DNA from: Balanoglossus misakiensis
Lineage: Eukaryota; Animalia; Hemichordata
Assembly (NCBI GenBank): GCA_040954595.2
Contig: CM082581.2
Location: 2,720,699 to 2,784,698 of the forward strand
Direction of reading: 5' to 3'
Length of the DNA stretch: 64,000 nucleotides
Shown: piece after piece, positions 11,530 through 51,064 of the stretch
Position numbering within the stretch: position 1 is the first letter of the stretch
How the letters are laid out: each line of letters starts with the position of its first letter
Translations under genes and position numbers: made by a program
The notes under the pieces: generated by a model
The model's input: only the letters and a program-made list of their open reading frames with translations
What the model was told of the DNA's origin: nothing
The model's database searches: none

Positions 11530-11684
11530 GCGTGGCAGGGCTGCGTGTTAACAGCTATGCCATAGCTGACACTGGTAGCTTATAACAGTCTCGATGGTGT
11601 AAAAAATCTCCCCAACAACAAAACTAATTCTGGTCAGTTTATTCGCTATCGCTTTGCCTTAAAAGTTATACTGTAGTGTGTTAC

Positions 11685-12101
11685 CACAGGGGGCTCTCCC
11701 TCCGCGATTTTATTGTTTGTTTGTTTGTTGTTGTTGTTGTTGTTGTTGATTGGCATTATAAACAAATACATATTTCTTTATTAATAAATATGGTTTGTTG
11801 ACATGTAAGTGTTAGGGAATATTCAACGGTTAGCATTAGTGTTGGCACTTTTTTCGATCCACGGCCCCGGGCATCACTAAGCCACGAAGAGAGGGTGATG
11901 CTGGCCGTGGATCGCAAAAATGCCAACACTAATACTAACAGTTGAATATACCATAACCTGTCAAATATACCCTAATAACCTAACCCTTACATGTCAACAA
12001 ACCATATTTATTGACAAAGAAATATGTATTTGTTTATAATGCCAATCAACAACAACAACAAACAAACACACAATAAAATTGCGGAGGGAGAGCCCCCTGT
12101 G
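11685..12101. mobile_element. Palindromic MITE with CAC..GTG ends
   Basis: CACAGGGGGCTCTCCCTCCGC..GCGGAGGGAGAGCCCCCTGTG inverted repeats extend through most of the element. It is flanked by direct repeat GTGTTAC (11678-11684, 12102-12108); an alternative reading is CCAC..GTGG with TGTTA. Confidence 0.85.
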
Positions 12102-12547
12102 GTGTTACGGTACCACCTGCCCCACAATGACAAAGCTGACTCGAGGCCACGAACGACGTACAATTTACTCGCACGGTGTAAAACAACGCATGAATTCCAT
12201 GCGACTGTGAGTTTACTGTTCGGCGCTGTAACGCTTCCCAAAGTCAGAATTTCGATGTTGGGAAGACACTGTCGCCCTACCACTACCAGTTTTTGCAAGA
12301 AGGAGTGTACATGTACTTGTAAAATAACATTAAATGCCATGCTTACCAGAGAAACGACATCATCAAGCATGGAGGCGACCGGGACCTCCATGCTTGATGA
12401 ACGTCGAAGCTGCAATGATTTTTCAAATGCAACGGTCAGCGGTACGAGAACGAGGCAGCACCTGCTCGTCAATTATGCAAATTAGTTACTACTCAATCAG
12501 AATCTTGCTTTCGCATTCTAATTAGTCAAAGTATGCAGTGCAACGTT

Positions 12548-14189
12548 TGTGTGCGGGTGGAGAATGCGCCTCGCCAACTGATGAATTCTCTGTCACGGCG
12601 TTCTTTGGAAGTGCGATTATGTAACCGATTATCTCATTAGGGACATAGATAATATATTTTGTCTTCTTCAATTTGTTTGTACTACGAAAACAATTGCGAA
12701 ACGAATAGCAAGCGCTTACGCTATGAAACGTAAATAAATATCAGTCATGGCCATGTAGAAACGGAACGTCAATCCGCATTTGTCAAAAAATAATAGAAAA
12801 GACAAAGAAGCTGAGGGGAATGACCTCTCCGTTCTGACCTATCTGGGGAAGGCCTATTGCAATACGCAATATGTCAGATCATGCTACCATCCGCCATTCT
12901 GATTGGACGAGAGCTCAATCCATCGATACGAAAGTACTCAATAGAGCACTGCTGAAACTGGCCCTGAACTAATCGCATGCAACAGGGAAAACGCGACCTT
13001 TCAAATCAAATAAATACAAAAAATACAGCCAATGAATTTACGGCCGGCCGGTTTATTTCTTAACTGCTCTATAGGAATTGTTGTCACTGCCATGGACCAC
13101 TTCGCGGATAGCATAACACAGGGTGTTGTGGGACAGTTTGCGTTCTGAGCGCGTGCATTAGCCATGCAGTAGACGCTATGTTGAACGCAAATTATACCAT
13201 CATGCATTGCAGATACCCTATCCGCGTAGTGGTCTATGCACGATGCATGTCTTGTCACTGCGCACTCGACAAATTGGACCGTTTCTATAAAAAATATGAA
13301 CTGTGACTTTTGATTTTATTGAGAAATGTCTCTCGAATTAAGACCATGTAACGTAAATCAAGGAAATGTATTCTGCTAAAGTTGCTCCTGACGGGTTCGC
13401 TGAAACATTGTGTTATTGGTAAAATACGTCAAGTGTAAAATATTGAGTTACCTAATATGATAAAATATCAGATTTATGTGTTTAATCAAGATAGGCCTCT
13501 CTTCATATGTTTCATTTATTTGGTTTGAATAAAAGTTATCTGATTCAGTTTCATGAAGTATACACGGATTAAATGTTTATCCACTGTAGTGCCACTGAAA
13601 TGGCTTTCACGTTTGAGACTTCGGGCGGTAATCTTATATTTACTTTCTTCATTTCTATTGGAGTAGACTACACCGGGGTCGACCTAAAATATCTATAAGC
13701 AATGCGCAAAGGGAGTATTTCAGTCGTGATGACCGGACGATGTCGGACAAAGTCTACAACTTAATACACGATCACCTCCAATTTGCATATGTCCATAAAT
13801 GGCTAAACTTGCGTATCCTAGTGTTCTAAAGAACAAATGGTGGCGCTCTTATTGTCGCGTGTGCCACCTCCTGATTATCTGTGATTGGCTGTATCTCAAT
13901 TTGCCATGGTAACAGTAGCTAAATTTGCATAGGTTACCGTATACCTTTAAGGCACGTCAAGCGTATGTCCTTGTTGGGCTGTCTGACAGGAACGAATCGA
14001 GACCCACCGCACAGTCACGCAATAATGAAATCCACATCGCCAAAAACGATGTTTCACTAGACTCGGGTACATGCAACTATCTCATGGCATTTACAGAATT
14101 GAACACCCCAGGCAATGTTACGTGTTGCTCCATGACTGTTGCTCCATGACCAACCAAACAGCAAACAACAAACTCATGTCCAAACCAAT
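12548..14189. repeat. Copy 1 of a 1.64-kb tandem duplication; copy 2 = 14190-15446 + 28573-28886, interrupted by the Chapaev element
   Basis: TGTGTGCGGGTGGAGAATGCG starts both copies and CATGTCCAAACCAAT ends both. ORFs 13925-14149 and 28621-28845 are identical. Copy 2 lacks ~75 bp present at ~13626-13700. Confidence 0.92.
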
Positions 14190-15446
14190 TGTGTGCGGGT
14201 GGAGAATGCGCCTCGCCAACTGATGAATTCTGTCACGGCGTTCTTTGGAAGTGCGATTATGTAACCCCGATTATCTCATTAGGGACATAGATAATATATT
14301 TCGTCTTCTTCAATTTGTTTGTACTACGCAAACAATTGCGAAACGAATAGCAAGCGCTTACGCTATGAAACGTAAATAAATATCAGTCATGGCCATGTAG
14401 AAACGGAACGTCAATCCGCATTTGTCAAAAAATAATAGAAAAGACAAAGAAGCTGAGGGGAATGACCTCTCCGTTCTGACCTATCTGGGGAAGGCCTATT
14501 GCAATACGCAATATGTCAGATCATGCTACCATCCGCCATTCTGATTGGACGAGAGCTCAATCCATCGATACGAAAGTACTCAATAGAGCACTGCTGAAAC
14601 TGGCCCTGAACTAATCGCATGCAACAGGAAAAACGCGACCTTTCAAATCAAATAAATACAAAAAATACAGCCAATGAATTTACGGCCGGCCGGTTTATTT
14701 CTTAACTGCTCTATAGGAATAGTTGTCACTGCCATGGACCACTTCGCGGATAGCATAACACAGGGTGTTGTGGGACAGTTTGGTTCTGAGCGCGTGCGTT
14801 AGCCATGCACTAGACGCTAGGTTGAACGCAAATTATACCATCATGCATTGCAGATACCCTATCCGCGTAGTGGTCTATGCACGATGCATGTCTTGTCAGT
14901 GCGCACTCGACAAATTGGACCGTTTCTATAAAAAATATGAACTGTGACTTTTGATTTTATTGAGAAATGTCTCTCGAATTAAACCATGTAACGTAAATCA
15001 AGGAAATGTATTCTGCTAAAGTTGCTCCTGACGGGTTCGCTGAAACATTGTGTTATTGGTAAAATACGTCAAGTGTAAAATATTGAGTTACCTAATATGA
15101 CAAAATATCAGATTTATGTGTTTAATCAAGATAGGCCTCTCTTCATATGTTTCATTTATTTGGTTTGAATAAAAGTTATCTGATTCAGTTTCATGAAGTA
15201 TACACGGATTAAATGTTTATCCACTGTAGTGCCACTGAAATGGCTTTCACGTTTGAGACTTCGGGACGGGCGCAATGGGAGTATTTCAGCCGTGATGACC
15301 GGACGATGTCGGACAAAGTCTACAACTTAATACACGATCACCTCCAATTTGCATATGTCCATAAATGGCTAAACTTGCGTATCCTAGTGTTCTAAAGAAC
15401 AAATGGTGGCGCTCTTATTGTCGCGTGTGCCACCTCCTGAATATTT

Positions 15447-15494
15447 CACGTATGTTTAAAACGCCGGATAACGTCAACTGAGTTCTACGCATGC
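15447..15494 (+). repeat. Left bipartite TIR: CACGTATGTT - 15 bp - CGTCAACTGAGTT-nnn-CGCATGC
   Basis: Read directly: box1 15447-15456, spacer 15457-15471, box2 15472-15484, CGCATGC 15488-15494. Confidence 0.9.
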
Positions 15495-16088
15495 TCAGAA
15501 AAAATTAGCATAATTCTTGGGTCATGACCTAGATAGATGACGTATTGTGTGTAAATACAAAGGAACGGCCCATAGAAACCGTCCCGCCCCTTCATGTTTC
15601 CCCGGACTTTCTGCCAATAAATTTGGACCATTAAATGTCAATAATCTGTCAAACTATCCATATATGTCTATATTTTTCGCATAATTAGCTGTATGGGTGG
15701 TTCCAAATCCAAAACGCGCGAAATTTTGACTTTGCGGTCGTCGAGCCTAGTCCGCGTCAGACAGACGCTCAGGCTGGGTGACGACATCTGTTTCACAGGT
15801 TACGTAAAAAATAATCGTATTTTAAACAATTTTCTTGAGTTTTACTTGACATTTGGTTTTCAACAAACGTTTCTTCATCAATTACATTTTTATTTTATGA
15901 ATTAGTTCTCTGAGGCTAATTTTATTTTCATTGCTCTCCAGATAAAAATATTTTTTTTTGCGATCGTAGGAGACGCCCGTTGCTAGGGACGCCATTTCAT
16001 TTTTTGCTGTCGGTGATCGCATTTTGTTGTTTGATAGGGTACTTTCGCTTTATTTTGGGGGTTCGATTTTAGGTTGTGATAGAAAATA

Positions 16089-19000
16089 ATGATGTTTGGT
16101 TTAGAATTCCATAGATTTTGTTTGAGTAAATTGTGTAGAATTTGTGGGGGGAGAGCCCAAAGTTCATTGAGTTCATTACAAGGAAAATCGCCCAAGCAAT
16201 GTTCTGTTTATGTCAACGAAATATTATCAGTTTTTGGGGTTGATATTTCGAATGATGAAACAGATGTACATCCCTCAAACTTGTGTTTCCTATGTTACAA
16301 AAAAATATGTAACAATGCAAATTTTTATGGTACCAGTGATCAGTGGGTGGGCCATCCTAGGGTTGGGTCCTGTAGTATATGTGAGATGTTTACAAAACAA
16401 AGTAAGGGTGGGAGACCAAAAAAAAATAAAAGGGGAAGGCCACCAACTTATAAGAAAGGGGAGGGGGAATATACTATCAATTCTGGGGAGGGGTCAATTT
16501 TGACAAATGAGGGGTTGGAATATCTAACAACACAAGCCAGGGCTTCACAGACATTTCATTGGCCAGAAAACTTCAATCCAATGCTAACTGAAAATGATGT
16601 TAAGTGTAGTGTGTGTTTGTCTTTGTTCAATTGTCCATTGGAAAGTCCTTGTGAACATGTCTTCTGTAGTGAGTGTCTAATCAATGTATTCAAAACTGAA
16701 AATATGTCATGTATTCGCTGTCCTTGTTGTAGTCAGCCGGTCTCATGTTTTTCTGTTCGTCCAGCTAAACGTTATTTTCTGAATGTTTTGTGTTCTCTTC
16801 CAATGGAATGTCTTAATTGTAAACAAACTGTTGTCCTTGATTCTGTGTCGCAGCATGTCTGTCCCCAAAGCCCAAAGCCTGTCCCCAATGTCACAAATAT
16901 TGAAAGTACAATTACCGCCAATATTTTACAAAGGCCACCAGACTTGCCACTCACTCCTGCATTGGAAAAGGTGGCAACTCATCTTCTTAGAACAAAACTT
17001 CACCAGTCAACTGATGGTAAGACTGCTGTTTACAAAACTGGCGGACCGGTGAGTTTCACTTTCAATATCATAATCATAATTGCGTGCATGGCATGTTTAC
17101 ATTAACCCTTTCAATTCAAAATGAAACTGGAACATTTGTTTGATTTCAATAAAATGTAAAATTCTAAATTTGTGAGCTGCCAGTACTCAAACAATGAAGC
17201 ATCAAGATAAGAAATTAATTTAAAGAAATAGTAATTTTATTGTCTTTAATGATTTTCAAGAATCTTGTTGTGATGCACACTCCACAACCAAGAAAATCAT
17301 CAGAGCAGGCAACAAGGACTACCATCAGACAAAGGTCCAGGTATCTGGAAGAACAAAGGGACATAATTAGTAAGGGCAGTACAAACCAGCAGCACAGAGA
17401 TGAGATACAAGTGGCATCAAAGCAACAAAGAATAGATCAAATATTTGACAAAATACCAAGAACAAGAGTGAGTCATGAGGAGATGCTCTCATTGAAAGCG
17501 GATATAGGGATCTCATGGAATTCCAACAGAAAACTGAAAAGGTAGGTTGATAGCTATGTCACAAGTTATTGCTAATCACATGTCATAATTTCATGCATAC
17601 AGCTGCTTAGTAATACATATAAAAATTATAATGATTGTCTTACAAGTCTTACATTCTTTTTATTTTATATCAAACTCAGATGGTTCAACCAATGTGGTGT
17701 AAAAACAGCTGGAGAAGGCAAGATTAGACAAGTAAAGGAAGACATCGTCGGAGAAAACATTCTTGCTGAAAATCTTCCTTTTAGGTTTACAGACGAGAAT
17801 GGACACAAACAGATGAAGCTGGCACCATGGATATGTGTGGATGACTTACCCTTGAGGGTCATCAAACAATTGGAAGAAAATGACAAGTAAGTTTGAAACA
17901 ATATCATTTCTTTTTCTGAGACTGGCAAACAGGACATTGACTCATGCATAATACTTACCTTTCTATCTACGCTAAAAAAATATGAAGACATGGGGTCCAT
18001 AGAGTCCTGGAAAATCCTGGAAAGTCCTTGAATTTGATAGTGTTCCTGGAAGGATGCAATTTACCCCAGAAATACCTGGAAAATAATCAATAAATAACAA
18101 TGATTATTCATCGTGTTTATACAGATAATAGTATATGTAGGTCGTGTTAACTATATGATCTTACCGGTCAACACTTCTAAAAAATCAAGATGTTTGTTTA
18201 AATACTCCTGGAAAACTAGTTGGAAACTCCTGAAATTTTATTTGATACCACATCTAAGAACCTGGTGATGAGTTAGTGAATTATGACATGTTCAATACTA
18301 AATGGTTTCCTGGTTTATTTTGTAGACTGAACAACCTGACATGGCACAACAAAATCCCAGCTAAAGAAATATGGCTGAAAATCGGTGGCGACAAGGGAGG
18401 GGGGAGTTTCAAAGGCATGTTTCAATTGGCTAATGTGCATCGTCCAAACAATAAAAACAACACAGTCGTCTTCTGTCTCTATGAAAGTGGGGACTGCTAC
18501 TCGAATTTGGTCAAAGCTATTGCAAGGTTCAAGGAGCAGATCAATCGATTGAAATCATTAACCTGGAAGTAAGTTTATTTCTTAACATCAAACAAGTTTT
18601 GTGTAGAACTTCAATTATTTAAAGATATGTTATCAATACAATTTTGGAGTACATTGTAGTATGAGACAAAACACATATTTCTCACTAATGATGTTTTCTT
18701 TTATTTTGATTGGAATAGAGACAAAGCATTCCGAGTATTTGCTTTTGGCGACTACGAGTACCTTTGTAGGATGTATGGTCTCAGTGGTCCAAGTGGAAGG
18801 CATTTCTGCCTATGGTGCCTTGCCACACAAGAGGATGCCCAGACTGCAAGGCACCACAGGCAGATACCTCTAAGGACCCTGGCCCAATTGGAACAAGACC
18901 ATGACAAGTTCAACACCCTGGGTAATGGCAAGTTAGCTAATGCAAAGAAGTACAATAATGTCATACACAATGCCATCTTTGACATTGAAATATCACAGGT

Positions 19001-22000
19001 AATCACAATTACTGACTTCTAATTAATTTTCTCTTGTCCCTATCCAGTCGATACTGATAACTGTGGTTTTAATTTGACAATAATATTCACCAACGATTTA
19101 ACCACTGTCTCTGTGCTTCCCTATATCAAAAGCAAGGATGATAAATTATACTATGAATTTTACTGTTACAGGTGTGTGTACCGAGTCTTCATCTTGATCT
19201 GGGAATCTACCTGAGGTTTTATAACCTGATGGAGGCAGAAATAAATGCATTAGACAGGAAAATCGGGGTATACCTCGCTGAGTGCCATGCTGACACCAAT
19301 GGGTACACCCCTGAGTTCCAACAATATGTACTAGCTATGGAAAAAGTTGCTGAAAAGCAAGAAGATTTACTGCAACTAAAGCTTCAGACTCAGAGTGACA
19401 ATCTACAAAAAGAAATAGAACTACTGGTAAGAAATCATTATATGTACATGTATTGGCATGGTATCTGTACATAACTCATCTGAAAATATACTGATGCCAG
19501 TGATTGTACCTAACAAATGAAATTCTGCTGAGAAAATGAACTTGTAAATCATACAAATTTAATCCCTTTTTTATTATAGGAGAAGGCAATCAAGGACATG
19601 TTGGAGAACACCACATTGAAAGTCACAGCTGGCATACTAGCCCAAAAGCTCGACAGTGTACTCCAACAGATTGGCGTTCACTAAGTATTTAAAGCCGCAT
19701 CACTTCGCTCATGGATATGCCTATTGTTAAAGGAATGGGTCTGGGCTTTTGGAGGCGCATCCATAGCGAAGTGTAAAACCTCTTATATTCAAAAAGCGGG
19801 AGGGCGGGTGGGAATACATTCGCAAAGGATTTACCGAGGGGGCTGGTCATATAAAATCCCCACCCTGTCCCGTTTACGCACATAGCCCTGCTCTCTTGGC
19901 CTATTGCAAGGGAGGGACAGACTGTACGTTGCTCGTTGCTTTTATACTTCGGCTCATTTGCATATGGCGGATGGATATCGCTCTGTGCTGCGGTTTTGAA
20001 TAACTAAGTATTTAAAGCCGCATCACTTCGCTCATGGATATGCCTATTGTTAAAGGAATGGGTCTGGGCTTTTGGAGGCGCATCCGGACGCAAAGCCTAT
20101 TCTCCTCGCGCTTGAGCCCATTATTACCTAGTTGGGTATCCCCCCAATCCTTAAAATACAGTCAACCAAAGTAACAAACAAGCTTCCACTACAAACACAC
20201 CCAACCTTCATCCAACCATAAATTACGGCTGGAAATGAAAAAGAACGAAAAACGGTACCTTCATTTTATTGTGCTTTATTCCGTTATAAGTACTTGAAAA
20301 TTGTCTGGTGCACTCTTCCCTGTCGGGGTATAGTGCGAGAGAGAGAAAACAAAGGGGAAAAAAATAAATTTACTGTGTCAGAGAAATACATCGGGAGGCT
20401 CATTTTTTCTCAACAAAAGCCTTGGAAAATCCAATTAACTCATTGAGGTTCTCATATCTTTTTGTGTTCTGCTTTTCGTCGTTGGCTAACTCAGATAAGG
20501 TGCTTGCTGGTGATCCCCAACTAATGACCTTCCCTAACTGCATATAGTACTGTGCCGTTTCTTCCGCCCTCCAACCCACATGGGACATAAGAGTCTTAAT
20601 GTCCGTGCCTGCCATGGCCAAAGAAATAGCGCAAGCACTTCGGCAGCCATGTGGGGTTTCGCCTGCGTCGATTCCTACATCTAGTAGGTATGTTTTTAAC
20701 CGGTGATAAGCTAATTGCGATGAGAACGGTTTTTGCTCTGGCACTCCCTGTGAGTTTGTAGGGCGAAACAGGTAACCTGTTGTAAGGTCGATATCGAGGC
20801 TGGATGCAAGCTCGAGATATGCCTCCAAAGTGTTAATCGGACACATGAGAGTATCTTGGCATCGCTTAACTGCGAATAGGTTTGACCCCGCCCCCCGGAG
20901 CGTTTTACCAAAGGTGTGATTGAAGAGCAGGCCTGAATTATCGGGTAGCCGCAAAATTTCCTGCGTTTTCACGTGTCCTAAATCATGCGCCCTGTCACCA
21001 GAGAAGGCTAGTAATTTAAAAAATGCCATATCCCTGGCGAGAATGTACAATTGTTGAGCAGTTTGTGGGCTCTTCATTTTGTCTATAATATGACGGTAAA
21101 TTAGCCGCATCTTATCTAGAAAGAGAGGTTTCGCCTGCTTTGGTGTCAGGAGTGCTCTGGCCTGTTCTTCAGATGTTTTCTTAATGTACCTTTCTATTAT
21201 AATTGACTCCAAGGGGTTAGGGGTGGCCTTACCGGCTACCACTGCCTGGGACTGATAAAATGTCTTTAATTTGGAGACCATATTTCTGACTGTATTGGCA
21301 CGGAGCCTTTTTGGACAAGCACACTGCTGGAGTCCAGATGATCCTAAATGTGCACAATTTACCTCATGTACCTGAGTTTTCGCGTCTTTATCTTTAAAAA
21401 TAAGGAACCTAGTGATATCTTGGGGTGTTGCCGACCAGATACTTTTTTTGCTATCCAACTTAAAAAGGAACGACTCCAGTTGTTGGACGAGACGGTCCTT
21501 TTGTATTTCATGTTGAGAGCGATCGCCGAGAATGACTTGCATACGCTGATCGATTTCCGGCAGGTTAAAACCAGTTGGGAGACTTCCCTGGGCATGTTCA
21601 CGCTGGCGAGAGTAGTGAGTCTTGGTGCCACAGTTATGGCAGTAGTTTTCGTGATGATTGTCCAACCCGCACATCCAGCAGTCCTAAGCGGGGAAAATTG
21701 GACAAGCACGTGAAGACGTACAGTGCGCATGATTTATTCGCTTGTATATAAAAAAAAAATACGTATATTTATCCGTTGAATAAAATTATTTTGTTTCTTT
21801 ATTTTTTGTCTGTCTGTCTCCATAATTAAGACCTAAGGGGCGAATGTAGCGACAAAAAGGTCGCACTGTAGCTTATACGGATGATAACCCGATCGTGTTG
21901 GCCCAAGCACGACGCCGACCTCCCCTCGACTGGCGAATTTGTTGAAACTACGTGCCGCCCTCTGGATTGACGGCCAGAACGGAGGGTAGTGGCTCCGAGG

Positions 22001-25000
22001 AACGAGTACTGTTGCTTTTAGTGCGTTTTGGACGATGTGGTTCACAACAGCATGCACGAGCGAGAATGGAGGGTAGACATATAGGTTCTCATCTGGCGCG
22101 AATTTATAATTAAAGAAATTTACACCGGTGTTTTCGGGTTGTGGAAAAGCGGAAATGAATTTGGATAATTTAGCGTTAGACTTGTTTGCCATAGCATCGA
22201 TTGTGTGTGGGCCAAATTGCCTGTCTATTTTCTTCCACGCCTCATCCGAGAGTGTGGCCTCTGACAAGGACAGGTGCCTAGATGGCTGATCCGCGGGATT
22301 TTCATGTGATCTGACGTGCACTATCCTTAATCGAATATTCGACTCAAAACACAGGTTGAAGATCTTTTTCAACAGTTCGTTTAAACGAACTGATTTTGAT
22401 CCGGGGAAGCCGCCATTCCATGCGTGGACTAGGATTGCGGAATCTGAGTGTATGTCCACCCGCGCGTCGGCTAGTTCTGACTTGAAAGCAACAAGTGCTC
22501 TGGCGAGAGCCTCGGCTTCCTTTTCTGCTATTGGTCTGGGCATCCACTCGGTTTCCCACGAGTCACTGACTACTTGTCGCTGTTGCGAATTTGGCTGCAG
22601 TATCGCGGCCCATTTGAACGAGCTGGCGTCGGTGTATACATGTATAACGTTGTGGCTTTCTCGAGGCCAACGAAATGGGGGAGCGTTACGTACAATCTGG
22701 AGCCAAAATTGCACTTCCTCCCGAAGGGGGCCTTTAATGCGCACCAAGTTCTGTGCCGATACCTGCATCTTAGATATGGCATGTGCCATTTGTCTTATAT
22801 ATAAACGCGCACAGGGGATTGCGAGAGCGAAAGAAATGCATTTCCCCATAACTTTTTGCAATAAAGTAACTGGAATAGTGGGTTTGGAAAGTACTAACTC
22901 TGCCGTCTCGAGGAAGCGAGCTACTTTCTGTTCTGGGATGATGAAAGCTTGAATTTCCGTGTCTACCGTCATTCCTAGCATTATTAGCGACCTAACGGGG
23001 TGCAGTATGCTCTTTTCTAAGGCAATGAAATACCCTGCATCGATGCACATAGCTAACAGGATGAATGCAGCAGCCTCCGCTAGTTCCAAGTCAGACCAGG
23101 AGCTGTGTTGTCTGCCTACGGTATTAGCCGTTGCTGGCAATCTCAGGGGGCCACCGTGTCTGTCGTCAATATATTGGAGGCACGGAACTCCTAACATTCT
23201 TGCATAACTAGTTATCGCATAGCCTAAGGTATGGTAGATGTAGGCGGACAATTTCCACCCAAACGGTAATGAATTGTTCACGTACCAACGGCCTCCCCAT
23301 TGGAAACCAAAATACCGCCTGTCGTATTCCCTAATGAGAACATGATCATAGCCGCTTTTATCATCACACTTGAAGTGGTATTCTCCTTTTTTCATATACC
23401 TTGAAACGTCTATTAACTTGTCCAGTTTAAAAGGCATGTCTCTGATCCATAGATTCAGGAAGCGCATGTCTATGCACATTCGCGGCTTCTTCGGTTCGAC
23501 TGTTATCGGCATAACTATGTGGGGAGGTGGGTCCCTCCCAACTTCACCAAAGACAGAAATGGCCCCAGTCTGGAGTCTATCATGTATGGTTTTGGAAATG
23601 AAACCAACGAAATTTTGACATGAGGGGTTATTAGCAAAAATCTTTGCCGGTGGAGATGGTCCGTCATATTGACATCCCTTAAACGTGCCCCGAAAGTGCT
23701 TGAAGTACTGTGAAACGTTGACTTTGTCACATATCCAGTGCATAACTTGAGCCGGATTCTCTGCTGCCGTCGATAGGCGATTCCACACCTCCTTGTGTTT
23801 ATGAACCTCCCCGGCGACAAATTCATGTGGGTTTCTAAAAGATAGTAGTGCGGGCGACACTTTCTTGTTGGATTTAGCGACCTCATCGACATTGATAACG
23901 GGTCTCCTTGGTTCCTGTCGAGGGGCGCCCTCAAGAGATACCCATGTGTACGACTTTCTGGCGACTGGAAGTTCCTCAGGGCCGGTTTCCCATGCGTAGG
24001 GAGTGAACTGAAAAGGATAGATATAAACTGTGGGCTACTACATGTAAAAATGTTCTCTTGAGGGGGCCCCTAGACAGGACCTCAGTAAGGCGAGGCTGCA
24101 TGAATGCAAAGGACTGTTTTAGTCCTCCCTGCGTTCGGGGCGATGTTTGGTGTATGATAAATACGGTATATCCGCTACTGGTTGAGTGGGGCCAATCTAG
24201 GAAGGCGAGATAAAAACAAAACAAAAAACACCTTTTTTTTTTTTTTTTTTTTTTATTTATTTATTTTTTTTATTCTCAAGACAACCTTTTTAATTGTCAC
24301 GGAGGGTTGTAAGCACCTCGACTTTTCGTACATATCAAGTTATCAAAAGCATCACAGCAAGTTCTTAATCGTGGGTGTGCGTGTAGCGTTTGCTGAAGCC
24401 CAGTTCCTCAGGCACGTTTTTTGCGATTTTATGTATATGCGTGAATGCGTTCCGTCCATAGTGCGAGTGGTTGTGGAAAGTATGCGATTGTGCAGGTGTG
24501 CATGAAGGCGTCAATTAGTGTGCAGGCGACCGAGAGGAGTATGCGTGTAGGTGTGCATGCGTGTACGTGGATGAGTAACCCATGTTTACTTGCTGTGACG
24601 AAAAAATATCCACGATCAACAAGAAAAAAAAAAACAGCAATGTGGTTACACTACTTTCTATTTGGGCAGGCTCTGGCAACATGCCCTTTCTCACCGCATA
24701 CAAAGCATTTGACTAATTCATCTTTGTTTCTTCTCTCGTATGGTCTAAATCGTTCGAATTGTGCTCTTGGGCGACGATAGCCGCCATGGCCGCTATCCCG
24801 CATAAACTTCGACACTTTCGACGCGATTTCCTCCTCTTCTTTATTTCCCAGTAGTAGAACTATCAACCTCCCAGCTTCTTGGCCGAAATCATTCGATTCA
24901 AACTGGGCTAGGACCGCCCGGAAGCGATGTAACTTTGGGTGAGCTGCTACCGTCGCCCTATCCACCAGGGCCCTCAGGGCGGCGATGAGCTGGGATCGTG

Positions 25001-25519
25001 AGGTTAACGATGGAGTATGGGCCAGGTGCATGACTTTTTCCAAGGCGTCATCCACAGATGCGGTTTCTGTCAATTCTTGCAGTTTCTTCACCTGCTTCTT
25101 TAGGTTCTCCAACTCCCCTTTCTGCAATAAACGTACACATACAATAACTTCTCTGCCCATTACCACGGGTGGAAAGTATGCTTGCTCTCCCGTACTGAAT
25201 ACTCCCCTTTTGTTTACAGGGCGAGCGCCTTATTACATAGGCATCAGCAAAATTCAAGGCGAACATGCTTCTGCCACGTAAATGACCGCTCACGTTGCTC
25301 CTCCCTCGAGCCTATGTATTTCCTTTGGCCTCAGCCACAATAATTCGGCGCTCTCGCAGTCATCACCGGATGAACTGCCTGGCCGGTCTCCTTGGCACTC
25401 ATGGGTATAACCCACCCAGCTCTATTTAACAAACAAATGTTGGCGCTCTCGCAGTATATCACACTGCCTGGCCTGCCGCTCACTCCTGTAACTCCAAGTA
25501 TTCGACGCATATTGCATAG

Positions 25520-25562
<43 letters not shown>

Positions 25563-27079
25563 CAACTGGCGAAACAGGTGGTGTCAGGCCTAACAGGTGG
25601 CGGAGTTTCAAAATGGTGATTTGGCCTTCCACCTGCACTAGGAGAATTCGGAAGGCGAAACAAAAGGACAAACACGAGGAGAGAAGTTTTGGTGGCCCGT
25701 AGTGCATAAAAAACTGCACTGCAAAACAAAACCGAAATGACCGGCGGCATACAAGGGGGAATACTAACCTGGGTAACACTGCTGCTGACGCTTGTTGCCT
25801 CTCCACTTGCTGGTGTTGGTGCAGGCTTAGGCGCTGCTGCGGCATTTTGCTGGGGTGTGGCACCACTAGGACCGGGTCTTGGCTGGGGAACGGAAAGTTC
25901 TGCGGAGTCCTGGTGTGAGTCCACAAAAGCTCGGGCTGCGGGACCAGTATGAGCCATGGTTCGTGCTATCGTGCCTATTGCAAGGGAGGGACAGACTGTA
26001 CGTTGCTCGTTGCTTTTATACTTCGGCTCATTTGCATATGGCGGATGGATATCGCTCTGTGCTGCGGTTTTGAATAATAGACAGGCTTACCATGGAAGGT
26101 CCTTTGTGGGAAACCATGTTCACAAGTGTTTGCAAGTAAGTTTCTTAGTGATAACATGATCTTACCTTGTAGAGTGAATGATGACAGACTGGACAGCTAG
26201 TTACCCTTTTCCAAGGCACCATAATATTAAAGTATAATAACAATCTGGTATTTGAGAATGAGAATGAGAATATACACATTAATGTATGTACATGGTAATG
26301 GAAATATAATATTATATTATTGATTATATGCTGATTTAAGTTTTGGGCAATTATATCTTCTGAAATGATACTAAATAAACATATTATCTATCTACCTAGG
26401 ATACCAATATCAACAAGTTGACTGATTCTATTCTGTGTGAAGTAGAAACAGTTTGTCCCAGTTTGGCTGCAGAAGCCCGTGCTGTATGTTTCAAATTTAA
26501 CAGGCTATTCAAGTTACTTGCCAGGTGCCACAGTGGTTACAGCAAAGCTGAGAGTATGGAAGCTGCTGAGATTGATGAATTAGGTAGGTAAAGTACAAAT
26601 CAACACTCACCTTATTACCACATCCAAACTGGACCCCAGTTCCGAGAGAGTGTGACGTAGAACAGGGGGTATATGGATTTTTGATCTGTCCTGTCCTATG
26701 TCACACACTATGTCACTAATTTCTATGTAATGTATTTGTTCACCTTACAGAAACAAATATTGACAGCTTGATGGCATATTACAGAGAATATTTTCCCAAT
26801 TCAAGGATTTCCCCCAAACTACATATTTTGGAGGACCACACCACACAATTTATAAGATCTTGGGGATTTGGATGCGGCTTCCATGGAGAACAAGGTGGCG
26901 AGAGTGTGCATGCCCACATGAATAATATAAAATCAAATATCAGAGGACTCAAGGACCCTTTACAAATCGCCAAATCCATGCTGAAAGAGCACTGGGTACA
27001 GGTATCACCAACAACACTCCAACACAAACCACCAGTAAAAAAGAGAAAGTCTAGCGCATCTATGACTAGTGTTACATAG
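16089..27079 (+). CDS. Chapaev/RAG1-like transposase with RING finger, 9 exons, ~965 aa, exon 7 interrupted by a retrotransposon
   Basis: GT-AG exons 16089-17048, 17261-17541, 17680-17886, 18326-18568, 18719-18998, 19172-19426, 19580-19680+26078-26135, 26400-26583 and 26751-27079 join in frame (2898 nt). Motifs: LCRICG, DVHPSNLCFLC, WVGHPRVGSCSIC, RING CSVC..CEHVFCSEC..CPCC, catalytic D (KIGGDKGG), D (FGDYEYLCRMYGLSGPSGRHFCLWC), PSLHLDLG, PKLHILEDH, E (GEQGGESVH). Confidence 0.9.
20400..21683 (-). CDS. Tyrosine recombinase with N-terminal CxxC..CxxC zinc ribbon
   Basis: Catalytic set R (SGDRAHDL), K (FGKT), HxxR (PHGCR), H/W (HVGW), Y (AQYY). CWMC..CHNC begins right after a TTTTCCCCGCTTAG acceptor-like site. 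Confidence 0.92.
   Translation of the reverse strand, partial: DCWMCGLDNHHENYCHNCGTKTHYSRQREHAQGSLPTGFNLPEIDQRMQVILGDRSQHEIQKDRLVQQLESFLFKLDSKKSIWSATPQDITRFLIFKDKDAKTQVHEVNCAHLGSSGLQQCACPKRLRANTVRNMVSKLKTFYQSQAVVAGKATPNPLESIIIERYIKKTSEEQARALLTPKQAKPLFLDKMRLIYRHIIDKMKSPQTAQQLYILARDMAFFKLLAFSGDRAHDLGHVKTQEILRLPDNSGLLFNHTFGKTLRGAGSNLFAVKRCQDTLMCPINTLEAYLELASSLDIDLTTGYLFRPTNSQGVPEQKPFSSQLAYHRLKTYLLDVGIDAGETPHGCRSACAISLAMAGTDIKTLMSHVGWRAEETAQYYMQLGKVISWGSPASTLSELANDEKQNTKRYENLNELIGFSKAFVEKK
21833..24007 (-). CDS. Reverse transcriptase - RNase H - Dam-like adenine methyltransferase (DIRS pol)
   Basis: ORF 21833-23860 stays open upstream to a CCTTTTCAG acceptor at ~24008. RT: PRMCIDMRFLN, DDKSGYDH, LPFGW, YIDD. 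RNase H: YTDASS, HSDS, NPADQPSR. Methyltransferase: IDAMA, YVYPPFS. Confidence 0.92.
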   Translation of the reverse strand, partial: FTPYAWETGPEELPVARKSYTWVSLEGAPRQEPRRPVINVDEVAKSNKKVSPALLSFRNPHEFVAGEVHKHKEVWNRLSTAAENPAQVMHWICDKVNVSQYFKHFRGTFKGCQYDGPSPPAKIFANNPSCQNFVGFISKTIHDRLQTGAISVFGEVGRDPPPHIVMPITVEPKKPRMCIDMRFLNLWIRDMPFKLDKLIDVSRYMKKGEYHFKCDDKSGYDHVLIREYDRRYFGFQWGGRWYVNNSLPFGWKLSAYIYHTLGYAITSYARMLGVPCLQYIDDRHGGPLRLPATANTVGRQHSSWSDLELAEAAAFILLAMCIDAGYFIALEKSILHPVRSLIMLGMTVDTEIQAFIIPEQKVARFLETAELVLSKPTIPVTLLQKVMGKCISFALAIPCARLYIRQMAHAISKMQVSAQNLVRIKGPLREEVQFWLQIVRNAPPFRWPRESHNVIHVYTDASSFKWAAILQPNSQQRQVVSDSWETEWMPRPIAEKEAEALARALVAFKSELADARVDIHSDSAILVHAWNGGFPGSKSVRLNELLKKIFNLCFESNIRLRIVHVRSHENPADQPSRHLSLSEATLSDEAWKKIDRQFGPHTIDAMANKSNAKLSKFISAFPQPENTGVNFFNYKFAPDENLYVYPPFSLVHAVVNHIVQNALKATVLVPRSHYPPFWPSIQRAARSFNKFASRGEVGVVLGPTRSGYHPYKLQCDLFVATFAP
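24651..25166 (-). CDS. Gag-like protein with C-terminal CCHC zinc knuckle (probably the 3' exon of a spliced ORF starting at ATG 25957)
   Basis: CFVCGEKGHVARAC knuckle. TTTATTGCAG acceptor-like site near 25122; upstream Pro/Ala-rich ORF 25957-25769 ends at a CAG|GTTAGT donor. Confidence 0.8.
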   Translation of the reverse strand: MVMGREVIVCVRLLQKGELENLKKQVKKLQELTETASVDDALEKVMHLAHTPSLTSRSQLIAALRALVDRATVAAHPKLHRFRAVLAQFESNDFGQEAGRLIVLLLGNKEEEEIASKVSKFMRDSGHGGYRRPRAQFERFRPYERRNKDELVKCFVCGEKGHVARACPNRK

Positions 27080-27350
27080 AACTGGTGTACGAAAAATTAA
27101 TTGTAGTTCCTCACATAATACTTACCTTGCTGTCTCCGAGAGAAAGTCTACTAGTGCATCTATGACTAAGTGTTGCTTAATTAGAACTGGTGTACGAAAA
27201 ATTAATTGTAGTTCCTCACATAATACTTACCTTGCTGTCTCCGAGAGAAAGTCTACTAGTGCATCTATGACTAAGTGTTGCATAATTAGAACTGTTGTAT
27301 GAAAAATTAATTGTAGTTCCTCATGGCAATACTGTACTTACCTTGATGTG
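27044..27350. repeat. ~105-bp tandem repeat, ~3 copies, overlapping the transposase stop codon
   Basis: AGAACTG(G/T)TGTA recurs at 27078, 27183 and 27288. Confidence 0.85.
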
Positions 27351-28534
27351 TCCGTGGACTCAGGACTCCGTGAATATCTGCAAAGCAAAAGGAAGTATTA
27401 AAATAATATGTAATATAGTGTGTAATATACTGTAGTATGTGAAAGGAATAAACAAATTGTGATACCGTACCACATATGTGATAAACTGTACATTTGTAGT
27501 TTGTCTTTCTTTAACTTTGTTTAGCTTTTTGTATACCTGTTAAATTAAAATATTACACAAGGTTGCACAGTTAAAAGTTCATGTGTTTGCTTTTAATTTT
27601 ACAACTGTCAATTAACCTACCTTAGTACCATCAGATACACAAGATCTAAATAAATGACTGCATCCATCATCAGCATGGAATATTGAGATACATCCACATG
27701 TATGATTAGTGATTACACCATCATGAACATTTGAAAAAAACTGTGTTCTGAATGATAAAAAAAACAATAATTCGTTCAAGTCTAAAAATAAACAGTAGAA
27801 ATGTAGAAATACAGTTTTACTCGACCCTTCACGACTGGTTTACGATTGAACGGGCAATTACATCCTTTGCCAAAACGTTTACGTTTGTTGTGTTGATCAA
27901 ACAATCGAAGGTCAAAATCACTTCCGGTTTATGCGTTAACGATCAGCCATTAAGCATGTTGCGTGATGAACGTAAACATTGTGACCCGTAGTACTTTTCT
28001 GGGGCTTTTCCTCCATTGCGACTTCATTTAATAACATCTATTTTTATCCCTTGTACATTTTAACTCCCCCAAAAGACCAGACATAAGATCTGACATTGTA
28101 TTTGACGTTCAAACCTACCTATTTTATCGTGTACTTTGATGGAATGTCCTCCGTCTGCAAAAAATTAGCCGCACATGTTGTCTGGTCCAGTAGTAGCGAC
28201 AGCTTACGTACTTTTAAATTTGATACCATTCTCATCGGGAAAAACTCAAGAAAATTGTATAATCTATGAATGAATTATCGATTTTCGTAAAATTCAAAAA
28301 AAATACCGTAGCCGTGTTTTCGGCGGTAAAAGACCAAATAAAACGGTTTAATCTTCCGGTTTTCGCTGTTAAGATTCCACGAGACGTGATCGGATCTAAT
28401 TATTAATTCATATAACCCTAACCCCGAGAGAAACGTGAGTTTTTATTGGCTAAATTGAAGGGGGTCACCGTTGCTAACGTTCGTTGCTAGCCTAATTAGC
28501 ATATGATCTCAGGGAAATTCTTGTTCCGTCATAC

Positions 28535-28572
28535 GCATGCGCACAACTCAGTTGACGCATAGAACATACGTG
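28535..28572 (-). repeat. Right bipartite TIR: CACGTATGTT - 5 bp - CGTCAACTGAGTT-nnn-CGCATGC
   Basis: Read on the minus strand: box1 28572-28563, spacer CTATG 28562-28558, box2 28557-28545, CGCATGC 28541-28535. Confidence 0.9.
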
Positions 28573-29952
28573 ATTTGTGATTGGCTGTATCTCAATTTGC
28601 CATGGTAACTGTAGCTAAATTTGCATAGGTTACCGTATACCTTTAAGGCACGTCAAGCGTATGTCCTTGTTGGGCTGTCTGACAGGAACGAATCGAGACC
28701 CACCGCACAGTCACGCAATAATGAAATCCACATCGCCAAAAACGATGTTTCACTAGACTCGGGTACATGCAACTATCTCATGGCATTTACAGAATTGAAC
28801 ACCCCAGGCAATGTTACGTGTTGCTCCATGACTGTTGCTCCATGACCAACCAAACAGCAAACAACAAACTCATGTCCAAACCAATGACGGTCGCAACTCA
28901 TTGCATTAAACAATATAGATGGGGATCCCAAAGAATAATTCAAATATATTTGCAGAATTGCCACGCAAGTCGAGCATATTGTCCAAATTTAAGCACTCTG
29001 CAACTGAAACATAAAACCCAAGCTTTTTACAATACAGGAATTAAAAATTCTGATTGAATTAATGCCAACATAAAACGAAAAAAGACAACTCACAAAATGT
29101 ATATGTAGTGTTTCATGTAGTGTTTTGATCTCAAGAAGACATGAAAAAATCGTCGGGGGAAAAGCAGGTGAGAACATCACCTCATTTTTGGGATATGAAA
29201 TAAAAGTCTATTTTACGGAGACACCTGGTAAAAAGTCCACCCTAGTCTCAATTTTCCAGACCCCTCTGGGATAGTCGAGTAGTCCATCCCCATGAAACTG
29301 CATATTTTAAAATAGCCAAAATGAGTCAATGGGGCATTTTTTCATCCTACCTCAACCTTGCTAAGAGTTTCCGTGCCAGTCACCTGCAAAAATTAAATTT
29401 ACCACGGACAAATTGAAATACAGCCAATCGAAAAAAGTGCGCCACCACATGGTCATTTGAAGACTTTGATGCTCTCTTCTGGCCGTAACCGCATGTGATC
29501 CGGAATAAAATTGAGCCTTGATCGCGTTTTTTATTTTATTTTCACCACCAACGAAAATCTACGACGGCCCAACCGCAGATTATTGCTGCTCCATACAACA
29601 ACCAGCTTATACTGTACATAAGTTTTGTGTTCTGGTGGCATTTGCGGGTCTGAGACGTCATTTCTAGAAGGCCCTATTCGTTTTATACCAATAACTTTTA
29701 CCACCCATGCTGGATTTTTTACGTTTTCTTTGACGACGCTTGACCCTTTTCTTGCTTTGTTGTAGTCTTGGTTACCCAGATGCCTTTGCAAAGGCGAATG
29801 GGTAACAGAGACCAGCTTTGTTGTTGGTAGTTTGTTTGTTCGTAACGTCTGTAACTGGGATTCTTCACTTGTGGAATATACTGCTTATTTCTTGTGTATC
29901 TGCATTTTGTTGATGCTGTCGCTCCTCTGGCAGTGAAGCAAGGGTGCTAGCT

Positions 29953-30208
29953 GGGACTGTTCGGGATTTACTTCCGGGGGGCGGAGGATTTTCAGGAGGG
30001 ACCGCCCATTTTCTCCAAGAACAATTTAGGGAGGAATAGACATAAAAATCACAATCCTTTGGGGGGACCATGGAAAAACCCCAGGAAATTTAAGGGGTAC
30101 AACAGATTTCCTCCACAATTTACTGGGGGTACGTCCATGGAAAAAACAATCACCAGGAAAATAAAAAATCCTCCGGCCCCACCCTGGAAGTAAAATCTGA
30201 ACAGTCCC
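29953..30208. mobile_element. Small MITE (PIF/Harbinger-like GGG..CCC ends); related G-run ends at ~32260-32430 and ~58390-58560
   Basis: GGGACTGTTC..TTTACTTCC(G/A)GGG inverted repeats at both ends. The superfamily is inferred. Confidence 0.55.
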
Positions 30209-31181
30209 TAACTTTTGTTTGTTTGTTTGCTTGTTTATTTGTCTGTCTGTTTGTGTATTCTATATTATGTTATATGAAGCTTCTGCTACATTTTGCATTT
30301 CCTTTTGCATAAACAATGACCAAACCGACTGGAGCGCGTTTGGGCGCAGGATAGATTTAAGAGTTAATCCATCTGTGTTTACCGGCTAAAACCAGTGAGA
30401 CCGTAGTAGTAATCCAAAGGCCAGTCAGTGCATGTTTGCATGACTGGCGTATAGTGATACCTACCACAAAATGGTATCGCCCAAATAATGTTTGCCGGAA
30501 TTTATAAGCCTGGCGCTCTCCTAACAAGTCGTCATGTTCGCCCTCGTAGTCATGCTGCCAGTCGGGGAAAATGACGTACTTCATGTAAAAGTTTATAAAA
30601 AAATAAACCAAATTTCACTGCCATGTATCCCAAAACAATTTATGTGACAAATTTTTAAAAAGAACACTAACTTCGGCTAAGGAATGTCAAGTCATAGCTC
30701 CGCGTTCAGGTCTGTGTGTTCCCGACGCACCACAGCCCTGCATAAGGCCCCATAGACAAAACTGGTGCGCCTGCGGTCCGGACCCGGACGCCCGACCGCA
30801 GCTTTTTCTGTCGAAATTCGATTTTATCGAAGCAAAATCCTTTCCCTTATTACTTCAATATGATGCGTTTAACTTCTTCTAACGTCCGTGTAACGCCGGG
30901 AACACACAGACCTGCACGCAGAGCTAGTCAAATCAGTGCACTGTGCAGTCGGTCGGTACACTCTGCTGGTGTATACAAACGATCGTGGCGACAGAATCTC
31001 TCCCTGGGACGGCCTTACACAAATTTAATCGATTGTCTAACAATTTTACTGCGACTTGTTGCCACGTCTTATACATTTCGTTGACCAGTGGAATATAGAG
31101 GTTCAGTCGTCACGCTGAACTGGCTCGAAACCATTCCCCACGCTGATTCGACTCTCGCGCCCGGGATATATGTCTGTGGTA

Positions 31182-35002: not shown

Positions 35003-35420
35003 TGTGGTGAGGTTATTACTTGACGTGATGGGGAAATGCAACGACGTGGGGAGGTTATTGCTTTACGTGATGAGGACATGCAACGACGTGGGGAGGTTAT
35101 TTCTTGACGGGATGGGGAAATGCAACGACGTGGGGAGGTTATTATTTTGGCGTGATGGGGACATGCAACGACGTGGGGAGGTTAATTCTTGACGTGATGG
35201 GGACATGCAACGACGTGGGGAGGTTATTTCTTGACGGGATGGGGAAATGCAACGACGTGGGGAGGTTAATTCTTGACGTGATGGGGACATGCAACGACGT
35301 GGGGAGGTTATTTCTTGACGTGATGGGGAAATGCAACGATGTGGTGAGGTTATTTCTTGACGTGATGAGGACATGCAACGACGTGGGGAGGTTATTGCTT
35401 TACGTGATGAGGACATGCCA
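35003..35420 (+). repeat. Left subterminal 42-bp minisatellite (~10 copies)
   Basis: Unit GTGGGGAGGTTATTTCTTGACGTGATGGGGAAATGCAACGAC. Confidence 0.92.
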
Positions 35421-38400: not shown

Positions 38401-38695
38401 ATAGGACTAAGCACACTACAGAATGGAAGAATTCCACAGTTCATGAGTGAAGAAGTGCGACAGCAGCTATTTGAAAAGCCTTCTCCATCCCCATGCATTG
38501 AGAAACTGAGACAAGGGTTTGACAAACTTGGCATTTGCAAGGTATGTCGTTATTCAGTCAACAAGTTGGTATGATAAAAGTATAATTTTTAATAAATTCC
38601 CTTGTCAACCTCACAAGCTACATTGATTAGCTCATAGTCCTTATAGCAATCTTCTTGTAACTAGAACAATTTAATGTTAAATCATTGCTATTTAA

Positions 38696-39304
38696 AGGGG
38701 AAATCTGGCCTAGCTGATTTCTACATAATTTGGTAGCTTTGAGGTCACTCTTTCAGAATAAAACATATTTGCCATGTATAAGTCGCGCGATTTTTTACAA
38801 AATCGAGGGAAAGTTGGCAGAATTTCCAATATGGCATTTACTGTAATTTGAATCATGGAAAAAAGCGCCAGGACCAACTTCCGCCCACCATGGTGTGGGT
38901 GATACCATTCTCCGATTGGTGTCACTTGGCGACAGACTAGGTGTATTTGCATAGCTATTGTTTGTACTTTGCGTCAGTTGATAAATAATCATCAGCAAAG
39001 TTGAAAATCTATTGACAGCTTTCATGAGCTATAACCCGTGAAAAAATATGCAAATACGCCTAGCCTGTCACGCAGTGACACCAACCGGAAAATGGTATCA
39101 CCCACACCAAGGTGGGCGGAAGTTGGTCCTGGCGCTTTTTTCCATGATTCAAATTACAGTAAATGCCATATTGGAAATTCTGCCAACTTTCCCTCGATTT
39201 TGTAAAAAATCGCGCGACTTATACATGGCGAATATGTTTTATTCTGAAAGAGTGACCTCAAAGCTACCAAATTATGTAGAAATCAGCTAGACCGGATTTC
39301 CCCT
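38696..39304. mobile_element. Palindromic MITE, Kolobok-like (TTAA TSD, AGGGG..CCCCT ends), in a HECT intron
   Basis: ~255-bp inverted arms, which explain the mirror ORFs 38710-38952 and 39048-39290. TTAA at 38692-38695 and 39305-39308. Confidence 0.88.
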
Positions 39305-39522
39305 TTAAGTAGTCTTACAGTTGTTTGTTTCATTGCAGCTTGTTAAGAAACTACCCCTGCTTGTGCATTTATTTGTGCCAATGCCAACAGTGCCTTGACA
39401 TTCAGAAAGCTGAAGACCCTATTAAAACCCAAGTTCAGTCCCGATGGATCTAATAATCGCAGAGAAGAGAACAACGTGTACGCGAGCTTCATTTCGTACA
39501 TGACAGAAGCTGCAGGCAAGTA

Positions 39523-50266: not shown

Positions 50267-51064
50267 ATAACTATTCCCCAACGTATGAGTTTGTGGTTTG
50301 TATCAATATGCCAGAGTTGATTTGGGCCTTTAACATTGTACACATGCCTCAGTAATCTACCACGTTTCCTTGCTTCAACTCCATTTCCATCAATGCGGTG
50401 TACACTATCCCTAAGTCTCTGGTGTTGTACTTTAATTCCAGTCTTTTCCATGAGCAAGTGCGTCAACATGTTATGCCCACAATAGGGGAACTCTTTTGTT
50501 AGTTCCTCCATATGAACATCAAGTTCTTCATCTAAAATATCACTAAACATCATTTTGCTGAGCCCATACTGTCTCATTCTACGGTATATTGTACTTTCTG
50601 ACACAATGAGCATTGAGGCTATTTCTGAGATCTTGAATCCTTGGTCCAAATGGGTTTCCAAAATGTGTCTAGGTATGAGAAATTGAGGAGCACCAGAAGA
50701 ACTTTGCACTTGTGGAGGAGTTCCACTGCCAAATGTTACACATGCTGTACGCAAAGCCATTTGATCAGCAGGGTTTTTCAAACCAACAGATTCCAGTTCA
50801 TACCTTGACAAGTTACACACAATGTCAGGTGTTATGTTCTCCATGTCAAATGTCCTGGATAGATGCCCAAGGTTTAGTTGAAGCAGTAAAGCTGACATAT
50901 TTGTCACTGAATCCATTTTTGCAAAATCTGCAAACTCCAATTCAATATGGCAGACTGAATATGAAGCTACGCATCATGGGATATCCATAAAATATCAACC
51001 ATTAGATACAAAATAATCAACATATAAGAACTAGCTGTCATCCCACATAATATATATTCTCAAC

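Follow-up and report, generated by a model that had tools for sequence, protein, structure and literature searches.

We analysed a 64,000-nucleotide stretch of contig CM082581.2 of the hemichordate Balanoglossus misakiensis (hereafter the window, whose positions are used throughout) and found that it very probably carries a complete Chapaev DNA transposon, which inserted recently and belongs to the RING-bearing subgroup. The transposase gene of this transposon is split by a 6.4-kb retrotransposon, and the copy in the window likely lacks an active enzyme. The element and its boundaries are as follows:

15447 to 28572, plus strand: whole Chapaev transposon, 13,126 bp (6,729 bp minus the nested retroelement), defined by inverted ends, a target-site duplication (TSD) and an empty paralogous site.
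15443 to 15446: left TSD, ATTT, 4 bp.
28573 to 28576: right TSD, ATTT, 4 bp.
15447 to 15494, plus strand: left terminal inverted repeat (TIR), a perfect 10-bp end plus a 23-bp subterminal arm.
28535 to 28572, minus strand: right TIR.
13834 to 13924: paralogous site without the transposon (empty site); it lies in the upstream copy of a 1.64-kb tandem duplicate.

When inverted ends beginning with CAC were looked for, the CAC...GTG termini were placed at 15447 and 28572, where 10 bp match perfectly. Both ends carry the terminal sequence CACGTATGTT, and the subterminal arm at 15472-15494 is 91% complementary to 28535-28557. The transposon sits in the second copy of the tandem duplicate, the first copy being the empty site; when the flanks are joined across a single ATTT, 88 of 91 bases are identical to that site. 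The insertion is recent, since the TSD is identical on both sides, the empty site is nearly identical and the repeats of the nested retroelement are identical. An earlier note on this DNA, made from sequence without database searches, had covered 16089..27079, and the transposon ends, which lie outside that range, were missed there. A longer pair of candidate TIRs (11846/29439) was rejected, having no TSD and similarity that stops after 13 bases. A search of Rfam with window positions 12000-30000 gave no match.

Chapaev hallmarks are a 3-4-bp TSD and CAC/GTG ends (Zhang et al., 2014, PMC4079192), and the ATTT duplication and the CAC/GTG ends thus agree with the published description. The element further has a DDE triad with C(2)C, LH and H(4)H motifs, a Chapa domain and a RING. 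Chapaevs with both Chapa and RING were described by Kapitonov and Koonin (2015, PMC4411706), so this architecture is already published and is not new here. The element is a new family within that known subgroup, its best relative being 42-43% identical over the core.

The tandem duplicate that hosts the transposon spans 12547-15446 and 28573-28885 (1.64 kb, 98.6% identical). The insertion point lies within a short repeat, at which contig depth is very high in two runs of one sample from one study (X1 and X2).

Nine predicted exons and eight GT-AG introns would give a transposase of 965 aa with a single terminal stop, in agreement with the roughly 965 aa that the earlier note had reconstructed, and in the protein alignment all exon junctions are collinear with relatives. 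Chapaev introns and antisense RNA are not mentioned in the passages of PMC4079192 that were searched. The predicted exons are:

16089 to 17048, plus strand: exon 1, residues 1-320; type I Chapa/NZD, basic patch, C3HC4 RING, C2HC finger, Chapaev-only helices and KTGGP, followed by a phase-0 intron.
17261 to 17541, plus strand: exon 2; predicted NBD-like DNA-binding helices and the start of the dimerisation domain.
17680 to 17886, plus strand: exon 3; pre-RNase H region.
18326 to 18568, plus strand: exon 4; first catalytic Asp, D505, and a Pfam DUF1280 match (E 4.1e-15).
18719 to 18998, plus strand: exon 5; second catalytic Asp, D575, and zinc ligands C594 and C597.
19172 to 19426, plus strand: exon 6; helical insertion with a long predicted coiled hairpin, ~20-25 aa below most relatives.
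19580 to 19680, plus strand: exon 7, first part; runs up to the retroelement, with an in-frame stop after it.
26078 to 26135, plus strand: exon 7, second part; conserved RQAY..F.GNH motif.
26400 to 26583, plus strand: exon 8.
26751 to 27079, plus strand: exon 9; zinc ligands H881 and H886, catalytic E907 and the stop.

A DDE core with zinc ligands had been read in the eight exons that follow the first, and its residues (D505, D575, E907, C594, C597, H881 and H886) are all present there. The same reading had the frame free of stops and frameshifts, which is true once the 6,397-bp retroelement is left out; as the DNA lies, an in-frame stop follows residue 776, and H881, H886 and E907 are lost. 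The insert starts with CT and ends with AA and is therefore not an intron. Its parts are:

19681 to 26077, minus strand: nested tyrosine-recombinase retrotransposon, PAT-like, 6,397 bp inside exon 7.
24651 to 25229, minus strand: gag zinc knuckle.
21833 to 24034, minus strand: reverse transcriptase, RNase H and Dam-like methyltransferase.
20400 to 21683, minus strand: ALOG and recombinase.
25973 to 26077 (A1), 20003 to 20085 (B1), 19899 to 20003 (A2) and 19680 to 19762 (B2): split direct repeats, each pair 100% identical.

The repeats are 105 and 83 nt long and run in the order A1...B1 A2 B2, an order that, together with gag, reverse transcriptase/RNase H and recombinase, is shared with PAT-like and Ngaro elements (PMC6681497). 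The Dam-like match is weak (E 0.0028, below the cut-off). From that match, and from the rule, which we assume, that a Dam-like methyltransferase goes with PAT-like rather than Ngaro elements, we infer the PAT-like label.

An uninterrupted form of the gene exists in other DNA, either at the same locus or in another copy. Contigs from X1 and X2 join 19679 directly to 26077, and the X1 contig (1,906 bp) has 10 differing letters and no gap. None of the X1/X2 contigs listed bridges the transposon ends. Coding differences between the window and these runs were taken from 40 of 227 rows (22 differences), with 1 more listed separately, and no stop was found among those listed in the uninterrupted contigs. 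Judged from its sequence, activity of the uninterrupted form is plausible. The element had been called young and potentially revivable; its youth stands, and there is an uninterrupted form in X1/X2, but the window copy itself is broken by the retroelement.

Next, we considered the N-terminal head. The motifs that the earlier note listed were all found in exon 1: CRICG at residue 16, DVHP..C..C at 59, W..H.....C..C at 86, a basic patch, a C3HC4 RING at 173-214, a C2-H-C finger (C241/C244/H256/C258) and KTGGP at 316. Homology of this head to RAG1 was likewise upheld. Pfam matches were obtained for RAG1_imp_bd (PF12560; 27.6 bits against a cut-off of 23.3, E 2.8e-6) and zf-RING_UBOX (26.6 bits, cut-off 25.2). 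The best match of exon 1 among PDB sequences was mouse RAG1, with residues 23-260 aligned to 132-376 in one stretch (E 6.1e-10); the RAG1 RING/finger structure 1RMD matched at E 8.2e-7, and the NZD structure 21WB at E 5.8e-4, or 6.4e-13 with the family profile.

All eight Chapa ligands (H8, C16, C19, C66, C69, H89, C95 and C98) are present in the type I pattern of one N-terminal His plus His-Cys-Cys, and they are conserved in 62-65 of 65 rows. Type I is the Chapa type closer to RAG1, and the Chapa domain of Chapaevs is without experimental validation (Hong et al., 2026, bioRxiv 10.64898/2026.01.24.700457). The likeness to the RAG1 NZD (Hong et al., 2026; 21WB) consists of four Cys at the first zinc and an N-terminal His, a His and two Cys at the second; in contrast to that NZD, the insert that vertebrates have after the first Cys pair and ahead of the DxHP motif is missing from this element. 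The structure model of exon 1 had a per-residue confidence (pLDDT) of 88 and a predicted template-modelling score (pTM) of 0.48, and its RING and finger matched TRAF6, LNX and RAG1 1RMD equally well (Z 10.0-10.4). 21WB was absent from the fold matches listed for exon 1, in searches dominated by the RING, and the Chapa/NZD match therefore rests on sequence rather than on an overlay.

To call this head a complete RAG1-type N-terminus was an overstatement. The second finger is of the C2HC type, whereas that of RAG1 carries two His, and RAG1 residues 1 to ~100 have no counterpart in the head. RAG1 has further Cys/His residues immediately ahead of its RING and within it, which we take to form a third zinc site; this head has non-ligand residues at the aligned positions. 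Two helices at residues 271-306 have no RAG1 counterpart. All eight RING ligands are present, along with V175, L197 and P212, presumably the positions that face the ubiquitin-conjugating enzyme (E2).

A HMMER search of a protein library clustered at 50% gave 1,291 matches to exon 1 at E<=0.001, the best 150 of which were listed. A word-index search with exon 1 for longer proteins had returned 1 of 1,062 candidates, which the HMMER search showed to be a limit of its sensitivity. Ten of the 150 listed matches are longer than 700 aa, nine with DUF1280 and one a multi-RING host-like protein. Among 11 long exon-1 matches that were scanned, 10 were not RAG1, and none of these 10 matched the RAG1 core family PF12940, in which toad RAG1 scores 1,228 bits. 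A second search gave 61 relatives, many of them from echinoderms, lancelet, Hydra and sponge. By blastp the core is 30-42% identical over ~630 aa to invertebrate DUF1280 transposases; the 52 of 79 matches that were nearly full length entered the alignment. Of these 52 relatives, 51-52 keep the catalytic and zinc residues, and 50-52 keep L880-H881...H886, C594/C597 and the DDE triad, taken together.

One protein annotated in Amphiura filiformis (P0003) has Chapa and RING among five CXXC fingers and more RINGs, without DUF1280, and is possibly a domesticated Chapaev head or a fused gene model. Full-length Chapaev-type proteins also occur in ENA contigs of 4.6-36 kb (P0116, a cluster of 10, and P0071, P0126 and P0138); these would be intron-less members if they were called without splicing.

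The core gave no significant RAG1-core match at the sequence level, either by blastp (toad RAG1, E 4.6) or with a RAG1-core hidden Markov model (HMM) built from 16 vertebrate proteins (E 0.45). When the family profile was compared with RAG1 by hhalign, RAG1 104-747 aligned collinearly, head included, with a probability of 99.6. For structure we used relative P0166, which is 43% identical to this transposase and whose predicted structure has a pLDDT of 89. The P0166 model matched RAG1 (Z 29.2, 504 aligned, root-mean-square deviation (rmsd) 8.5; and Z 27.4, 456 aligned, rmsd 3.7), BbRAG1L (Z 24.4) and HzTransib (Z 23.9, 401 aligned, rmsd 3.5) at 11-18% identity (15-18% for RAG1 and BbRAG1L), and the next family, P element, scored Z 10.4. 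The superposition on RAG1 and HzTransib that had been proposed as a check thus gave a strong fold match, although through a relative and not through this protein. HzTransib (PDB 6PQX), which shares the core fold and catalytic layout, differs in lacking the head and the NBD-like part and in its 5-bp TSD; 5-bp target duplications are published for Transib and TransibSU. By profile alignment and predicted structure, the remote homology of the Chapaev core to RAG1 is real; the transposase would work like RAG1 and Transib, but it is a Chapaev and not a RAG1L.

The earlier note had also taken this lineage for the donor of the RAG1 N-terminus, which exon shuffling across the phase-0 intron 1 would have joined to a Transib core. 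We consider this unlikely. Intron 1 is indeed in phase 0 and lies within ~10 residues of the start of the RAG1 core: hhalign pairs kTgG-P with RAG1 NKGGRP, and in the structural overlay RAG1 391 pairs with residue 329 of the transposase model. Its position also looks widely conserved in relatives. Among the best 150 of the 1,291 exon-1 matches, a TGG-type motif was absent from the range in 80 and present in 70, of which 48 read TGG-x-V and then stop (one likely a false motif), 8 read TGG-x-x-V, 12 read on and 2 were other; a V after TGG-x fits a GT donor, hence the apparent conservation, which is read from proteins in a library that favours exon-1 frames cut at the intron. The type I Chapa domain, nearer RAG1, points the same way. 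The intron is, however, not the clean module edge it had been said to be, because it splits the TGG-x-P motif before the P, follows a Chapaev-only helical insert and is followed by an NBD that is still RAG1-like. From the last finger to the start of the NBD there are 59-70 residues here against ~15 in RAG1, and ~45-55 residues before the intron have no RAG1 counterpart, so a shuffled exon would carry helices that RAG1 lacks. The collinear similarity to RAG1 104-747 crosses the intron, and the NBD-like part 3' of it is common to RAG1 and missing from HzTransib, whose overlay starts at model residue 387.

Phylogenies of the head likewise did not group RAG1 with this element. The head trees included no RAG1L or Transib: a RAG1-head search had yielded 86 proteins, each identified as vertebrate RAG1 from its name or Pfam set, with no RAG1L and no Transib. 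In favour of donation, this head had, in a FastTree of all 137 rows, the shortest path to RAG1 among 121 heads, narrowly (3.38 vs 3.40; median 3.99), although it ranked 45 of 221 with the RAG1-head HMM and 13 of 121 by identity to the RAG1 head (26% vs a median of 24%). In the FastTree it stands five nodes from RAG1, two of them supported at 0.94 and 0.82. IQ-TREE (43 of 137 rows, 226 columns, LG+G4) left RAG1 in an open polytomy, and a clade of RAG1, this head and 3 neighbours was weakly rejected (p-AU 0.034, approximately unbiased test). In trees lacking RAG1L, then, the RAG1 head does not appear as sister to this one; with the architecture already in print and 1,291 library matches to exon 1, the donor claim was not borne out. 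Published models favour a fusion in the ancestor followed by loss in Transib (Kapitonov and Koonin, 2015, PMC4411706) or descent of the domain from a common ancestor (Hong et al., 2026, bioRxiv 10.64898/2026.01.24.700457), and an N-RAG-TP insertion has also been put forward (PMC8355894). The locus does not decide among these and donation.

We also found signs of a second transcription unit, on the minus strand:

26091 to 28119, minus strand: predicted spliced antisense transcript from the right end, with no convincing protein.
27621, 27342, 27231, 27126, 26611, 26166 and 26091 (and 28119), and also 17850, 17959 and 18165, minus strand: strong splice donors.

Donors were scored with a donor matrix. 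With the retroelement left out, the minus strand has 10 donors of at least 9 bits against 1.9 in 200 simulations, none of which reached 10. Seven of the 10 lie in the 3' 2.5 kb, a density of 2.8/kb compared with 0.16-0.71 elsewhere on that strand. Several have good acceptors 25-79 nt upstream, which would make exons of 25-79 nt, and one predicted exon covers transposase exon 9. The motifs suggest that a non-coding antisense transcript likely limits transposase expression. The longest frame given by the antisense exon chains, 163 aa, was rejected as a protein, as one exon start lacks AG and the frame is mostly a shadow of exon 9. Just past the transposase stop, a 105-nt tandem duplication (27072-27281) copies one antisense micro-exon, and an X2 contig lacks one copy.

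The longest stop-free frame in the 1,493-bp 3' region is 79 aa, and none in the 5' and 3' non-coding parts exceeds 86 aa. No RAG2 or kelch match was found in 10 frames of the non-coding parts, and the antisense exon chains gave no such protein. RAG2L is convergent to RAG1L in RAG-like transposons, in published accounts. The antisense unit is placed convergently, like RAG2L; nothing here links the two. Because RAG2L is convergent to RAG1L, one may imagine that RING-Chapaevs keep the ancestral body plan of the RAG transposon (NZD-RING-finger-NBD-core, an ancient head/core intron and a convergent spliced right-end unit), and that the antisense unit restrains the transposase and was the slot in which a RAG2 precursor was captured. 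We regard this as an improbable speculation.

The open state of all nine exons could instead mark a domesticated host gene, or a gene kept functional by splicing out the retroelement. Ten of the 22 listed coding differences are synonymous, compared with 21% expected, and there are AG acceptors near the right retroelement junction. An active transposon is also expected to be under purifying selection, however, and the intact ends, identical TSD and near-identical empty paralogue bespeak recent transposition. The first part of exon 7 holds no donor of at least 6 bits from which the retroelement could be removed by splicing; in-frame splice-outs need weak donors and delete at least 4 residues of a conserved stretch. 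Both a host gene and a gene rescued by splicing are very unlikely.

Less credible still is a RAG2-less ProtoRAG or RAG1L transposon in place of a Chapaev, a reading that could draw on the RAG1-homologous head, the NBD-like domain and the P0166 fold, slightly nearer RAG1 than HzTransib. The TSD is 4 bp, not 5 bp, and of the CACGTAT ends only CAC is common to the heptamer of the recombination signal sequence. A DUF1280 match is present and the 1.5-kb 3' region holds no RAG2-like frame. No RAG1-core sequence match was obtained, whereas RAG1L cores are >30% identical to the RAG1 core (PMC4411706). The Chapaev label that the earlier note gave is therefore retained, on the 4-bp TSD, CAC..GTG ends, DUF1280 core, missing RAG1-core match and missing RAG2L. 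The element resembles RAG1 and RAG1L/ProtoRAG in the order NZD, basic patch, RING, finger, NBD and DDE core with C2H2 zinc, and in the predicted core fold; it differs from them in its 11-18% core identity, C2HC second finger, extra pre-NBD helices, long coiled hairpin in the insertion domain, 4-bp TSD and lack of RAG2L. Identity as a Transib was rejected on the Chapa domain, the RING and a TSD of 4 rather than 5 bp, and identity as an N-RAG-TP on the full DDE core, since the Aplysia N-RAG-TP, a transposon with RAG1-like N-terminal sequence, is entirely N-terminal-like (PMC8355894).

Several points weigh against our reading of a Chapaev whose uninterrupted form may be active. The link between DUF1280 and Chapaev rests on hallmarks and architecture. 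Splice junctions and expression are predictions, and the core fold is predicted on P0166, not on this protein. In exons 1-3, 8 coding differences from X1/X2 are listed, and 7 of them change a residue. This protein has Ile in a column where 48 of 52 relatives have Pro, and its exon 6 hairpin has 75 aa against 82-126 in 50 of 52 relatives, the X1 contig also having the short hairpin. Directly after the last RING Cys this protein has Ser and RAG1 has Arg, at a position that varies in the family; because Ser replaces the RAG1 Arg, E3 ubiquitin ligase activity of the RING is doubtful. The antisense RNA rests on motif counts, and two of its donors are copies within the single 105-nt duplication. Compared with published RING-Chapaevs (PMC4411706, PMC4079192), with which it shares Chapa, RING, a distantly RAG1-related DDE core, CAC..GTG ends, a 4-bp TSD and the C(2)C, LH and H(4)H motifs, this copy has an interrupted exon 7, a shorter exon 6 hairpin and a predicted antisense spliced RNA.

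Under the Chapaev reading, an intact copy would make a spliced transposase that dimerises and whose NBD-like helices (exon 2) and core would bind the short terminal and subterminal repeats. The CAC ends would be cut by D505/D575/E907 with the C2H2 zinc site, as in RAG1 and Transib, probably by nicking and hairpin formation given the shared fold, and integration would proceed with a 4-bp stagger and no RAG2 partner. The Chapa domain, basic patch and RING may be regulatory as in RAG1, serving nuclear import, dimerisation and possibly ubiquitin ligation. With both of its ends retained, the interrupted copy could probably still be mobilised in trans, while the spliced antisense RNA from the right end would likely dampen the transposase message.

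Elsewhere in the window, an intact-looking long terminal repeat (LTR) retrotransposon at 44766-50266 has 100% identical direct repeats at least 168 nt long and a 1,597-aa frame with reverse transcriptase, RNase H and integrase. A further element is split by it, with an rva_4 integrase-core match divided into two minus-strand pieces (50263-50973 and 44010-44630). Two arrays of a 42-nt unit, 34962-35485 and 50934-51863, lie ~16 kb apart in opposite orientation and are 70-95% complementary. A 308-aa frame at 35427-36350 has a SAM domain at its N-terminus, and small elements resembling miniature inverted-repeat transposable elements, with long inverted repeats at their boundaries, were found at 11683-12103, 30695-30926 and 38688-39312.

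Since the architecture was already known, this locus alone leaves views on the origin of RAG1 unchanged. Its value is as a candidate for Chapaev biochemistry: it offers a RING-Chapaev whose ends and TSD are defined and whose coding form appears intact; among the literature matches listed, none was by title an activity assay of a Chapaev. The apparently conserved intron near the border of head and core is a character that can be scored in RAG1L genes, and the predicted spliced antisense RNA may be a shared regulatory feature.

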